37,971 bases of DNA from Chiloscyllium plagiosum (Eukaryota), in contig NC_057752.1 of assembly GCF_004010195.1 (NCBI RefSeq), positions 9,495,323 through 9,533,293 on the forward strand, in the 5' to 3' direction. Positions 16,726 through 37,158 of this stretch are shown in pieces (position 1 is the stretch's first letter; every line of letters starts with the position of its first letter). Under the pieces are notes generated by a model, which did not search any database, was not told the DNA's origin, and worked only from the letters and a program-made list of their open reading frames with translations. The position numbers and the translations under genes are program-made.

Positions 16726-17356
16726 CTTAAAAAGTGCTTTCGCCTTCAATTGGACTGTATCCAGTTTTGAAAGAGTGATGGACTAGGTGGTCGTTCCCAT
16801 TCGTCTCTGGACTGGGACCCAGATCCATACTATACAGAGTTCTTTTGATACACAACCCCATAGATTCTGCATTCCACAAATACAAAATTACTAAAACCAA
16901 CTCTGCTATTTGTGTTTGAAGATGCTTTTATGTGGAGAGATTTTTGGGATTTGGATTCCAGGGAGCTCGTGTTGAGTTGGCTCCTAGTTTTTGTATGCCC
17001 AACTCCCCCATTCATTTGGCAGGATCTGGTTCTGCCACAAGGGGAAGGAAAGCTTAAAGGCAGGAGCCCAGCTTGAATACCTGTCTCTGGGAATTCAAAT
17101 TAAGCTGATGGTGTAGGCACTGTTGTACTGGTTCTACCTTGTTGCAGTAGGTTGTGGGAAAGCTCAGAATTGAGGGCCAAAAGTATGTTGTATTTGTTGG
17201 TGATTATCAGGAATTCAAGAGAAAGTTTCTTTCCTAGAAAGTGAGGAGAATGTGTAGCTTGCTACCATTTTAAGCCAAATGGCTTGATTTTGTGCTGTGA
17301 ATTTTTAGGAGTGTAGCCATTGTTGAGATCACATTCTGCTTTTATTGGTTGGAAAT

Positions 17357-17570
17357 GGTCAGATGTCACATGACACCAGGTTATAGTCCAACAGGTTTAT
17401 TTGAAATAACAAGCTTTTGGAGTGCTACTCCTTCGTCAGCTAACACTACTTCGCCTAATGAAGGAGCAGCACTCCAAAAGCTTGTGATTTCAAATAAACC
17501 TGTTGGACTATAACCTGGTGTCATGTGACATCTGACCTTGTCCAGCCCAGTCCAACACTGGCACCACCTC
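17357..17570. mobile_element. Palindromic Penelope-like insertion (~83-bp arms) with a TSD
   Basis: Arms 17357-17439 and 17455-17537 are near-perfect reverse complements. Flanks ATTGGTTGGAA at 17344 and 17571. Confidence 0.75.
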
Positions 17571-25610: not shown

Positions 25611-25741
25611 TCTCCTGATGAGAAAAGACTTGAAGGCCTGTCAAAACAGCTTGACTGGGATGTCCGCAAAATTCAGCGTTGGTTTCGACATCGAAGGAAT
25701 CAAGATAAACCAAGTACCCTCACAAAATTTTGTGAGAGCAT
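25611..25741 (+). CDS. CERS5: Ceramide synthase exon encoding the Hox-like domain, [43 protein letters not shown](M)
   Basis: Long CT tract ending ctcag at 25610 and AT|gtacgc donor. 131 bp, phase 0 in and phase 2 out. [13 protein letters not shown] and TKFCESM resemble CERS5 more than CERS6 (RSIQ, RQRRNQEKP, TRFCESM). Confidence 0.93.
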
Positions 25742-26559
25742 GTACGCCTTTTTTTCTCTTTTTTTTTTTNNNNNNNNNNNNNNNNTTTTTTTTTTTCCTT
25801 CCCCCCCCCCCCCCCCTCTCTCTTAACTGTTGTTGAGTCTTCAATTGAATTCCATTAAACTTAGTTAAGGCCTATTGTGCGATATTCCTGCTACTGTAAT
25901 TGCAGTTTCGGTTCATACGGGTGAGCATTCATGCATTTCTGAAAACAAGTCTTGTAGACAACTGATAATCTTCATGTAAACCCTTTGTTCTGTCCTCCTT
26001 TAACTGTGCTAGTTAGTACTTTACCTGGGGGGGGGAAAATAAAAGTCTATGCAATTTGTGCTTCTGATTTCCTTCCCAAACTACTTCTGAAAAGATCTGC
26101 ATTGTAGGCTTTGCAAAAGAAAGCCACCAATTGAAGGATGAAGATGCAAATGAAATGGTGGTGCCTTTCCTAATATTCTTTCCTTAGAACATCCAGATTA
26201 TTTCCAAGATTTCTCTAAAAGAATAGTGGATGTTGTTGGCATGTGATGCACATTTATTATTTTGTATGTTTCTTTTTAATGTATAATCTTCCACCACACC
26301 TACATCCAGAAATTGGAATGGAGTTGGCCCATAATTGGGGCAACTGGTTTACGGTGACTGAACAAGTGAAATTTTTTTTCTTTTTTGATTAATTGCACAA
26401 GGAATCATTTTGTAGGCTTGACCCCAATGGTTGAAATGACCGCGAGTGAGCGAAAATGTAGTCGTCATAAGTGTTTGGCAGTTGTCTTGTCTTGATATTT
26501 TAATGCTCCTAATACTGCCAACTCTTGCGTAAGCTTTTCAATCTGCTGGACAGGAAATA

Positions 26560-30913: not shown

Positions 30914-30971
30914 GTGGAGACTTGTATTTTATTTCTATATATTCTTCTATGGAGTGAGATTTCTATGGAAG
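30914..30971 (+). CDS. CERS5: Ceramide synthase exon at the start of the TLC domain, (M)WRLVFYFYIFFYGVRFLWK
   Basis: ttgcag acceptor (ends 30913) and AAG|gtaagt donor. 58 bp. Its first G completes the ATG split from the previous exon, giving the conserved FCESMWR motif. Confidence 0.92.
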
Positions 30972-33718: not shown

Positions 33719-34025
33719 AATCGCCCTTTATTTACATGTGGAGAGTCCTTGACACTGATCCAGCTCTGTGAACAGAACCGCTGACACTCCTGTTCTTTTT
33801 TGTTAACCCAAAAAAAAAACATTTTTAAAAGTCTACCTGAAACAAGGGGGAGAGAAAAAGAAAACTCTCCTCCTTAGTAGGAAACCCAACAGCAGTAATA
33901 ACATACTGACTATATGGTCCAGGCAGTTCAGAGGTCAGTCCCCTCTCTCAAAATGAAGAGTCTTTTACCATTGTTCCAGCTCCCTCAGAGGCACCTCTGA
34001 GTGAACAGAACCTCTGACACTCCTG

Positions 34026-34231: not shown

Positions 34232-35557
34232 TTTTTTTTTCCCCTTTATTAACCCCCACACTACTGCCTAAGTGCGGTAGTGCTTATTTTTCCCCAGCAC
34301 CCATGGTGTGTGTGCAGGTGTGATACACAGTGAGAGACACAAGGTGTATGAATCTTTATTCAAATTCCACCACCAGGAAGATAGGAAAACACCCGGGTGG
34401 CCAGTGACAAACACTCCCCTTCACATCAAAGGGCAGTGCTGTGTGATCAAACAGCGAAGGGGAGGGTAGGGACTAAATGTGGGCGGCACGGTGGCGCAGT
34501 GGTTAGCACTGCTGCCTCACAGCGCCTGAGACCCGGGTTCAATTCCCGCCTCAGGCGACTGACTGTGTGGAGTTTGCACGTTCTCCCCGTGTCTGCGTGG
34601 GTTTCCTCCGGGTGCTCCGGTTTCCTCCCACAGTCCAAAGATGTGCAGGTAAGGTGAATTGGCCATGCTAAATTGCCCGTAGTGTTAGGTAAGGGGTAAA
34701 TGTAGGGGTATGGGTGGGTTTCGCTTCGGCGGGTCGGTGTGGACTTGTTGGGCCGAAGGGCCTGTTTCCACACTGTAATGTAATCTTTGTAATCTAATCT
34801 AAATCAAAATAGAGTTGGAGGGAGAAATGATGCACTCCACTCCCTGTGGCGCCCACCTCTCCATGAACAACTCCAGGGTGTTGGTCGACACCGTGTGCTC
34901 CTTCTCCAAGGACACCCGGGCCCTAACGTAACCGCAGAAGAGGGGCAGGCAGTCGGCCCTAATGGCCCCCTCCACGGCCCGCTGCCTCGACCTGTTGATG
35001 GCCAGTTTGGCCAGGCCCAGGAGCAGACCCACGAGGAGGTCTTCAGACCTGCCCTCCCTCCTCCGTACCGGGTGCCCAAAGATCAGGAGCGTGGGACTGA
35101 AGTGCAACCAAAAGCAGAGGAGGAGGTTTTTCAAAATCAAAAAGGGAGTGCAAACGCCGACACCCAATATACATGTGGTCCACGGACTCCACAGCGCCAC
35201 AGAACAAGCAGTTGGGCTGGGAGTCCGTGAACCACCGCAATCTGCGGTTGCAGGGGACTGCTGCGTGCAGCACCCTCCACCCCAGATCCCCGAGAGAAAG
35301 GGGGAGGACTCCCGCGTAGAGAGCCCTCCACTGGGGATCCCCACCGCCCGGTGGCAAATGGGCATGCCAAGGCGTGTCCGGACGGTGGATGAGGGAGAAG
35401 AGGTGGACGGTGTGCAGCAGCAGTCTATACAGGGCCCTCCTTTTTACCCCCTGGAAGGGAACAAAATTAAAATTCCGGAGGCGGCTCAGGTTGTGGGGCA
35501 CAGGCTCCCGCGGGAAGTACGGGACCTTGGGGCCAATGTGAAATTCCGTCCAGGCTG
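34232..35557 (-). mobile_element. 5'-truncated Tx1-clade (L1 superfamily) non-LTR retrotransposon: ORF2 C-terminus with zf-RVT, 3'UTR and poly(A), interrupted by a SINE
   Basis: Translation ...DLGWRVLHAAVPCNRRLRWFTDSQPNCLFCGAVESVDHMYIGCRRL..., a frameshift near 35135, then ...LLLGLAKLAINRSRQRAVEG...ERWAPQGVECIISPSNSILI* (stop 34799-34801). The CxxC-H-C knuckle and C-terminus are typical of Tx1 ORF2. Confidence 0.85.
34481..34800 (+). mobile_element. Young full-length tRNA-derived SINE (HE1/V-SINE-like) nested in the Tx1 copy
   Basis: A box GGTGGCGCAGTGG (~34490), B box GGTTCAATTCC (~34536), V-SINE core (gtgtggagtttgcacgttctccccgtgtctgcgtgggtttcctccggg), CpG-rich, (TAATC)n tail. CTAAAT is duplicated on both sides. 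Confidence 0.9.
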
Positions 35558-35571
35558 TAAACTGTTGTACG

Positions 35572-36473
35572 TTTTTTTTTTGACAAGAAGCACAGTCATT
35601 TATTTCTCTGAACAGTTTACACAGTGAGTCAACAGGGAGTGCAAATGACATTCAGTAATTCCAGGCTTAGGGTCTGCGCTGAGTCCTTGCTGAATCTTGG
35701 GATGCATGGAATGAATCCGGTTCCTCTGGAGAAAGGGGAAATTGTTCCAAAGATCTTTGTTCCTTTCCTGCACCTAGGCAGCAAGGAATTATCTGGGCTG
35801 ATTTGGTGACAGTGCATGTGGTGAAGAGCAGAAGCTCCAGCTTCAGGAGATGTTGTTTGTGGGACCTTAATGATGCCGAGGTCTCTAACAGATCAACAAC
35901 ACTGGTGAGAACAAATCTATCCGCTGGCTTCGATCTCCTCTGAATCATATTTGAAGTCCTGAAGAACCTCATTAATTGCCTCAATGGTTTTCCTAATCTG
36001 CTTCAGTTCTCGGGCCTCCTCCTGGTAGGTCTCATTGCCTGGATGGTCCAACATATTCTGCTTGGCAAGTTGTCGCCTGGTTGTCAATTCTAGCTTTTCC
36101 TGTTCCCGTTCCTGAACTCTCGTGATGTGCTCAGAGAGATCTGGGTGATCATACTCCTCATGAAACCGGTCCTTGAGCTGAATCACTTCCTTGGAGATCC
36201 GGTTAAATGCCTGGGTGATTTCGTGCACCAGCTGCCGGTATTTGATAAAGTTATAGTTGGGAGCAGAGCGGAGATACGCCTGATGTCCTAGATCAAAAAG
36301 CCGATAAGCTTCAACACGCTCCTCCTGTAATGCATAAAGGGTCCGCACCAGTGTATTCAGTCCATTTGCAATCATCCTCCATCCAGAGCGCGACTGGCTC
36401 AGGGACTTGCTCCTGTCAGCCGCCTGGTCCTCCTGCGACAGCAACAACTCAGGCCAGGCTGCGTTACTGCAGG
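35572..36473 (-). pseudogene. REX1BD: Processed retrocopy of REX1BD (C19orf60) mRNA: 5'UTR, uninterrupted ORF, 3'UTR, AATAAA and poly(A), flanked by a TSD
   Basis: Intronless ORF with ATG at 36375 and stop ending at 35917. AATAAA on the minus strand at 35599-35604, A10 tail at 35572-35581. Flanked by TAAACTGTTGTAC (35558-35570) and CAAACTGTTGTTC (36474-36486). Confidence 0.85.
35917..36375 (-). CDS. REX1BD: Open 152-aa ORF of the REX1BD retrocopy (required-for-excision 1-B domain protein); expression unknown
   Basis: Motifs LQEERVEAY, GHQAYLRSAPNYNFIKYRQLVHEITQAF, VQEREQEKL and KTIEAINEVLQDFKYD match the REX1B/C19orf60 family as recalled (human GHRQYLRSGPDYDFARYR...KTMEAISEVLQDLRFD). No internal stop. 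Confidence 0.75.
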   Translation of the reverse strand: MIANGLNTLVRTLYALQEERVEAYRLFDLGHQAYLRSAPNYNFIKYRQLVHEITQAFNRISKEVIQLKDRFHEEYDHPDLSEHITRVQEREQEKLELTTRRQLAKQNMLDHPGNETYQEEARELKQIRKTIEAINEVLQDFKYDSEEIEASG

Positions 36474-36486
36474 CAAACTGTTGTTC

Positions 36487-36669
36487 TTTATTTTTTTTTC
36501 AGTGAAAGACACAGTGCACGAATCTTTATTCAAATTCCACCACCGGGAAGATAGGAAAACACCCGGGTGGCCAGTGACAAACACTGCCCTTCACATCAGA
36601 GGGCAGTGCTGTGTGATCAAAACAGTGAGGGGGAGGGTAGGGACTAAATCAAAATAGAGTTGGAGGGAG
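36487..36669 (-). mobile_element. Tx1 3' fragment polyadenylated at the proximal AATAAA
   Basis: Same 3'UTR (gggtggccagtgacaaacactgcccttcacatc...gggactaaatcaaaatagagttggaggga). Flanked by exact CAAACTGTTGTTC at 36474 and 36670. Confidence 0.85.
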
Positions 36670-36746
36670 CAAACTGTTGTTCGTTTTTTTTTTTTTTTTA
36701 CACTCACAATAGGCAAACACTCAAGTGGCCAGTGACCAAACTGTTC

Positions 36747-37042
36747 TTTTTTTAATAATTCAACCCCCACACTACCACCTAAGTGCGGTAGTGCTTATTT
36801 TATCCCCAGCACCCATGGTGTGTGTGTGCAGGTGTGAGACACAGTGGAAGACACAAAGTGCACCAATCTTTATTCAATTTCCACCACCAGGAAGATAGGA
36901 AAACACCCGGGTGGCCAGTGACAAGCACTGCCCTTCACATCAAAGGGCAGTGCTGTGTGATCAAAACAGTGAAGGGGAGGGTAGGGACTAAATCAAAATA
37001 GAGTTGGAGGGAGAAATAATGCACTCCACTCCCTGCTGCGCC
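36747..37042 (-). mobile_element. Tx1 3' fragment (last ~17 ORF2 codons plus full 3'UTR and poly(A))
   Basis: Near-identical to 34232-34478 plus 34801-34853. Bounded by caaactgttc (36737-36746) and caaactgttgttc (37043-37055). Confidence 0.85.
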
Positions 37043-37158
37043 CAAACTGTTGTTCTTGTCTGTCAGCTAGGGCTCCCTGATTGGACCAGATTAATAGCTG
37101 TAATTAGGGAACTCCTATTCTGAGGTCCATCTGGCTGTTCTCATTACAATCACCCACA

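Follow-up and report, generated by a model that had tools for sequence, protein, structure and literature searches.

A processed REX1BD mRNA copy in a bamboo shark genome, probably inserted in trans at the LTR target of an L1/Tx1-type LINE

The window, a 37,971-nt stretch of the Chiloscyllium plagiosum genome (NC_057752.1, positions 9,495,323 to 9,533,293) to which all positions without a prefix refer, carries two CERS exons on its plus strand: a CERS5/6 homeodomain exon (25611..25742), which matches CERS6 with an E value of 2e-22 and also matches CERS5, and the next exon (~30916..30969), whose frame reads RLVFYFYIFFYGVRFLWK. The latter is the last exon before an array of repeat units, and the following one lies ~11 kb beyond the window. 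The array and the REX1BD copy that it contains are antisense inside this CERS5/6 intron, as the preliminary description of the locus had proposed. Elsewhere in the window, long inverted repeats lying close together, with arms of 64-93 nt that are 86-93% complementary, were seen at 1589-1868, 2272-2455 and 17347-17547; these are probably SINE pairs or MITE-like elements.

The array is a head-to-tail stack that splits a ~240-nt repeat, in which the REX1BD copy is one unit and has the same orientation as the LINE units. Intact copies of the ~240-nt repeat contain a CCAAT motif and a TATA-like box as well as AATAAA, and they end in CA. From its sequence we read the repeat as an LTR, possibly of Gypsy type; an Integrase_H2C2 match next to it is weak (E 1e-4, under the cut-off). 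Followed along the minus strand, the stack begins with the U3 half of the LTR (37059..37152), which has a CCAAT-box-like motif and lies behind degraded internal sequence and a purine tract. Adjoining the U3 half is the target site (37044..37058), a 15-nt variant with four differences from the common site TAAGAACAGGAGTGT. Three LINE fragments follow: unit A, a 5'-truncated LINE 3' end comprising the end of ORF2 and the 3'UTR (36754..37043), with an A-tail and a shortened target behind it (36753-36738); unit A2, a 38-nt piece of the LINE 3'UTR (36700..36737), with its A-tail and target (36699-36671); and unit B, a LINE 3' end polyadenylated after an internal AATAAA (36500..36670). Beyond the REX1BD copy lie unit C, a longer LINE 3' fragment containing the zf-RVT region (34241..35558; PF13966, E 9e-6) and split at ~34481-34800 by a SINE in the opposite orientation, an A-tailed unit with an LTR-R-like start and then non-LTR sequence (33802..34025), and the R half of the same LTR (33720..33795), which begins with the common target and ends at another repeat at ~33719. 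The altered target AACAACAGTTT occurs at five junctions, namely 37058-37044, 36746-36738 (shortened), 36683-36671 and both flanks of the REX1BD copy, bearing out the earlier statement that the copy shares its target duplication with the neighbouring LINE units. The far end of the stack carries the common target form, unlike the altered form at the U3 side.

The REX1BD copy occupies 35559-36486 on the minus strand. By alignment to the parent, it consists of a 99-nt leader derived from parent exon 1 (36474-36376), a 152-codon open reading frame found in the ORF list (36375-35917; REX1-B domain, PF14966, E 8e-30) and the 335-nt 3'UTR of the parent mRNA (35916-35582), which contains an AATAAA signal (35604-35599) and is followed by an A10 tail (35581-35572). 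The copy is bracketed by a target duplication of 12-13 nt with one mismatch, of which the 5' copy, GAACAACAGTTT (36486-36475), is a locus-private variant of the LTR site, and the 3' copy is CGTACAACAGTTT (35571-35559). The encoded protein is REX1BD, as had been suspected from the letters: it is 94% identical to the named bamboo-shark REX1BD and 75-92% identical to those of other cartilaginous fishes. The reading frame, the 3'UTR, the AATAAA signal and the A10 tail all lie where the preliminary description had put them. The leader, described there as ~98 nt of 5'UTR, is present, but 72 of its 99 bases are coding in the annotated 177-aa parent form (P0001). The upstream ATG of that form is TTG in the copy (36447-36445), and the 152-codon frame matches the 152-153-aa REX1BD form of other sharks and rays, whose start it retains.

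A genome search located the separate, spliced parent at G000:C31:42544691-42557739, with five exons that are 96-99% identical to the copy, and alignment to it showed that all four parent introns are absent from the copy. Across 902 aligned columns the two show 23 substitutions, besides small indels, and the reading frame of the copy, having lost 3 nt at the last exon junction, is one codon shorter than the 153 codons of the parent. The parent DNA has no A-run at the position where the A10 of the copy starts; this start coincides with the cleavage site of the parent, where 265 RNA reads have loose poly-T ends at 35572. A contig from the public DNA run X2, whose independence from the assembly is uncertain, spans the 3' junction of the copy (35527-36026; two differences, one gap), indicating that the insertion is not an assembly artefact. 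Around the parent itself, about five tandem 55-nt repeats, each with an ATG, lie in exon 1 or just upstream (L004:1600-1910; G000:C31 ~42557740-42558050); the retrocopy begins within the last 55-nt unit, and an RNA-like contig, X17, extends into the repeat. On the opposite strand, ~1 kb downstream of the parent gene, the LINE family of the stack forms another, degenerate array (L002:430-760).

The LINE of the stack is abundant, with 4,895 first-look candidates in the genome, the best copies being 95-96% identical. One long copy (L050) has pieces of an APE endonuclease (PF03372, E 2e-4), a reverse transcriptase (PF00078, E 4e-19) and a zf-RVT domain (PF13966, E 4e-5), and matches human L1 ORF2p with an E value of 1e-36. 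The closest relatives found were unnamed turtle and fish proteins, 37-64% identical. We therefore call the element L1/Tx1-type, the label Tx1 being based on domain layout and targeting behaviour rather than on a tree with named Tx1 elements. The genome also holds a second, more L1-like LINE (L048; human L1 ORF2p, E 4e-50) that shares 23% identity with the element preferring the site. In six loci (L059, L077, L100, L107, L122 and L123), the same LTR site is occupied by another family of A-tailed 3' ends, which contain internal GC-rich repeats. Since an L1-like LINE is present and a second 3'-end family uses the site, we infer, rather than identify, the LINE that moved REX1BD.

The landing position of the LINE within the LTR was examined in 66 U3 halves, 20 of which continue as intact LTRs and 46 of which do not. 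After dropping 16 of the 46 interrupted halves that had no LINE match near their start (diverged LTRs or non-LINE cargo), we found that in 26 of the remaining 30 the first LINE insert starts 13-19 nt past the CTGACAGA motif of the LTR, in loci that were chosen by LINE or LTR queries and hence form a non-random sample; the insert in the window starts at +15. Among LTRs retrieved by LTR sequence alone, 5 of 29 had a LINE insert at the site. A pattern of AATAAA, an A-tail and the right half of the LTR gave 25 matches, as compared with none in a reversed control. The LINE tails (n = 139) start all along the 271-nt 3'UTR, 78 near its end and 61 elsewhere, as would be expected if poly(A) suffices for priming. 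A target-like motif follows 71 of the 139 tails, as counted by a rough regular expression used with no control. In addition, four loci (L056, L104, L110 and L119) consist of arrays of target-plus-A-tail repeats with little or no cargo, that is, very short or abortive insertions.

Long copies of the LINE (30 loci, L164-L193; also L050:1940-2080) begin with LTR-R-like sequence. In 27 of the 30 loci they are headed by a piece of the element's own 3'UTR that ends at about position 91-103, and the other three run on directly from the LTR. These starts suggest transcription from the LTR or the array, or recurrent template jumps. We had also considered the R-like units as re-inserted LTR pieces, a reading that was rejected when many proved to be the 5' ends of long elements.

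The preliminary description had set the occurrence of other retrocopies at this target as its key test, and on other contigs the same LTR site was found to hold three further host-RNA copies: one of RPL30 and two of 3'UTRs. The RPL30 copy (L093, on C9), which came from a search of the L7Ae family that was blind to the site, is 5'-truncated, spliced across the last junction and 97-99% identical to the parent exons. It stands directly after a U3 half, keeps a 9-nt remnant of a duplication on its 5' side, and has LINE 3' ends and the R half lying behind it. At this locus, the array behind the copy contains two tandem copies of a ~740-nt segment (L093:1-760 and 520-1430), through either a local duplication or an assembly artefact. 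The two 3'UTR copies emerged from the 25 pattern matches described above, as the two in which the last unit is unique host sequence (L120 and L103). L120 (on C33) is a 303-nt 3'UTR copy, 98% identical to an AT-rich stretch of C19 that ends after AATAAA with no A-run and whose gene is unnamed; it is the sole insert of an otherwise intact LTR, with a duplication of ~16 nt. L103 (on C3), a copy of 460 nt with an A-tail, matches two pieces of C28 at 91% identity; the parent gene there is likewise unnamed. We rejected L103 as a spliced copy, and it is no proof of splicing, because the ~700 nt skipped between the two pieces do not have GT-AG ends. Two other sequences are found at the site as well: a SINE piece, and a near full-length 5S rRNA copy (L116:1183-1291; Rfam RF00001, E 2e-9) joined in sense orientation to the LINE 3'UTR, which may be either a single chimera or a SINE3-like family.

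Family searches blind to the site yielded four retrocopies in all. Apart from RPL30 at the site, they are older, broken and dispersed copies of UBE2N (L138, G000:C7:20947726), UBE2I (L154, C3:68335362) and RPS12 (L087, C1:55487528), which are ~82-92% identical to their parents; no LTR or LINE-family match was found within 1.5 kb of these three, nor was a clear target duplication found at them. The L7Ae search had 10 matches, all of which were examined and two of which are retrocopies, and the UBE2 search gave two retrocopies among the 30 of its 52 matches that were examined, while the RPSA and GAPDH searches for retrocopies returned parent exons only. If the arrays are assumed to make up 0.2-0.8% of the genome, the chance of finding one of four retrocopies at the site is 0.008-0.033, so that even this proportion exceeds expectation, albeit in a tiny sample. 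The contrast that had been drawn with the dispersed retrocopies of mammalian L1 accordingly needs tempering: four copies do share one site, but three of the four retrocopies from the family searches lie elsewhere.

Taken together, these results make the L1/Tx1-type LINE responsible for the stack, with its preference for the site, the most probable agent of a trans insertion of the REX1BD copy; to this targeted trans-mobilisation of an mRNA we assign a probability of roughly three in four. The earlier proposal that the LINE machinery had placed a cellular mRNA at its own target thus stands as the best explanation, because the LTR site holds three other host-RNA copies elsewhere in the genome. 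As we envisage the process, the LINE endonuclease would nick the TATA-like box of the LTR on its bottom strand, and a poly(A) tail would serve to prime reverse transcription, the 3' end of the LINE itself being largely dispensable. Cutting a second time ~15 bases further on would then generate the duplication, renewing the site for the next insertion. On the simplest reading, unit C was the first in the stack, since the altered target lies on its 5' side and the common target on its 3' side; units A, A2, B and the REX1BD copy would then have entered the altered site.

A broader version of this reading is that the TATA box of an LTR is the homing site of a vertebrate LINE that takes any poly(A) RNA. 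The LINE would thereby deliver both itself and host mRNAs directly beneath an existing RNA polymerase II promoter, acting as a natural, site-specific retrogene machine with an inbuilt promoter trap. In our own reading of the LTR sequence, first inserts begin ~15 nt past the TATA-like box and just before an initiator-like motif, and the RPL30 and C19-derived copies are directly under U3. The LTR-R-like starts of the long LINE copies, three of the 30 being continuous with the LTR, belong to the same line of evidence. We offer this generalisation tentatively and consider it doubtful on balance.

The strongest competing account holds that an ordinary, non-specific L1 made the REX1BD copy, which landed in the array since earlier A-tails provided a good T/A-rich nick site. 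L1 and Alu insert into mammalian A-tails, the bamboo shark genome contains an L1-like ORF, the junction of the REX1BD copy is A-rich, and the majority of the site-blind retrocopies are away from the LTR site. However, L120 sits alone in an LTR that has no earlier tails, yet shows the same phase and a duplication of similar length, and the RPL30 copy directly follows U3. Moreover, the 12-13-nt motif duplicated around the REX1BD copy is the one that the LINE units duplicate. We therefore regard an ordinary L1 as an unlikely source of the copy.

The preliminary description had also raised the prospect of an LTR-driven retrogene, that is, a functional REX1BD copy with a reading frame kept by selection and transcribed from the upstream U3. 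The frame is open from an ATG common to other sharks, the sole coding indel is in frame, and omega is below 1. The coding differences between copy and parent, however, comprise eight nonsynonymous and four synonymous changes and one lost codon, and the omega of 0.56, which is based on only 12 unpolarised coding substitutions, does not differ significantly from neutrality (p = 0.30). An open frame with the ATG kept was also obtained in 59% of simulations with 12 random substitutions (substitutions only). Six of the 23 substitutions are CpG transitions, and several residues changed in the copy are invariant among other sharks and rays.

The RNA reads likewise argue against a functional gene. Copy-specific letters had been suggested as a check on transcription, and at the diagnostic sites the parent letter was found in practically all reads of library X21: 356 of 357 at 35637, 286 of 287 at 35718, 286 of 286 at 35738, 130 of 130 at 35821, 78 of 78 at 35853 and 20 of 20 at 35923, these counts coming from one poly(A) single-cell library of unspecified tissue, at ~2% of the run, whose donor may or may not carry the insertion. 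Contig X17 also has the parent form of REX1BD. Position 35794 was excluded as diagnostic because X21 and X17 differ there, probably through a polymorphism of the parent. As for the promoter, the copy does lie downstream of the U3 half, as had been noted, but ~570 nt away, with three LINE 3'-end fragments, each carrying an A-tail, in between. Because of the neutral-looking divergence, the parent alleles in the reads and the three A-tailed units after U3, we treat the copy as a young, likely silent pseudogene, and selective retention as a gene seems very improbable.

The possibility that REX1BD travelled as cargo of a LINE unit, either by 3' transduction from an older retrocopy or as a template-switch chimera, is largely excluded. 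Chimeric units do occur in the arrays, as in the 5S rRNA fusion at L116, and a piece of the element's own 3'UTR heads most of the long elements, but no second REX1BD retrocopy was present among the six candidates of the genome search, and the copy ends in an A-tail of its own and is bracketed by target copies. Least probable of all, and in our judgement almost certainly wrong, is the capture of the mRNA by an LTR retrotransposon through template switching during its replication: the copy does lie inside an LTR beside the degraded integrase-like sequence, but its insertion point at the TATA-like box splits the LTR, and both its poly(A) end and the duplicated LTR sequence are characteristic of target-primed reverse transcription.

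The REX1BD copy, an ordinary-looking young pseudogene, is of little importance on its own; the interest of the locus is in the route by which the copy arrived. The maker of non-mammalian retrocopies has so far been argued from correlation: a survey of vertebrate retrocopies, which found them to be common in cartilaginous fishes (14,081, of which 15.7% have an ORF), proposed from the correlation with LINE content that retrocopies outside mammals are sustained by CR1 or Tx1 (bioRxiv 10.64898/2026.06.26.734816). The passages available from that survey give neither insertion-site evidence nor targeting, whereas the shark case is built on a shared landing site. A landing site that is both rare and shared signals its user directly, so that one could count what proportion of shark retrocopies this LINE family has produced. 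The available parts of PMC13320880 and 10.1101/2025.02.02.635956 hold no shark or Tx1 site data. We found no published mRNA retrocopies at a LINE's specific site, by Tx1 or in sharks, in a literature search largely confined to openly available papers.

Among known systems, mammalian L1 provides the model for the copies themselves. In the accessible text of two papers on L1 processed pseudogenes, these are characterised by intron loss, poly(A), a target duplication and relaxed recognition of the poly(A) tail (Ohshima 2012, PMC3472496; 2013, PMC3747384), traits shared by the shark copies, apparently including the relaxed recognition. In contrast to L1 retrocopies, which use loose endonuclease sites genome-wide, the four shark copies occupy one site in one repeat family, stacked with LINE 3' ends.

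For the choice of site, a parallel is TRE5-A of Dictyostelium, an L1-clade element with a fixed landing position beside a promoter (Siol et al. 2011, PMC3159450; review PMC5911963, both as far as their accessible passages go). TRE5-A requires its own 3'UTR, and according to its authors the genome is without processed pseudogenes from TRE5-A (PMC3159450, in the part available). Both elements use a fixed site near a promoter, whereas the shark element appears to combine this choice with priming on poly(A) only. Most site-specific LINEs put to the test depend on their own 3' end, as the available passages report for TRE5-A (PMC3159450) and R2 (PMC3472496 / PMC3747384), and relaxed LINEs are usually without a strict site, so that an element with both properties would fill a gap. 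The combination of site choice and relaxed priming, if true, would be of interest for RNA-templated targeted gene insertion.

A further close resemblance is to the crocodilian Tx1 elements. Tx1-Mar LINEs and SINEU, Tx1-8_Crp and Tx1-4_AMi are described as preferring sites in other transposons (Kojima 2015, PMC4494074); in the same passages, two such families target LTR retrotransposons, the trans-mobilisation of SINEU is deduced from the shared target, and possible transcription from the flanking target is discussed. The shark and crocodilian elements thus have in common a site in another transposon and a trans-mobilisation argued from a shared target. They differ in cargo, which consists of snRNA-derived SINEs in the crocodilians and of polyadenylated mRNA of protein genes in the shark, and the shark site is the TATA-like box, while the crocodilian passages (PMC4494074) give no position within the LTR. 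Tx1 site preference in transposons with carriage of SINEU, and the processed pseudogenes of L1, are therefore known already; what likely differs here is the cargo, an mRNA at the LINE's own site.
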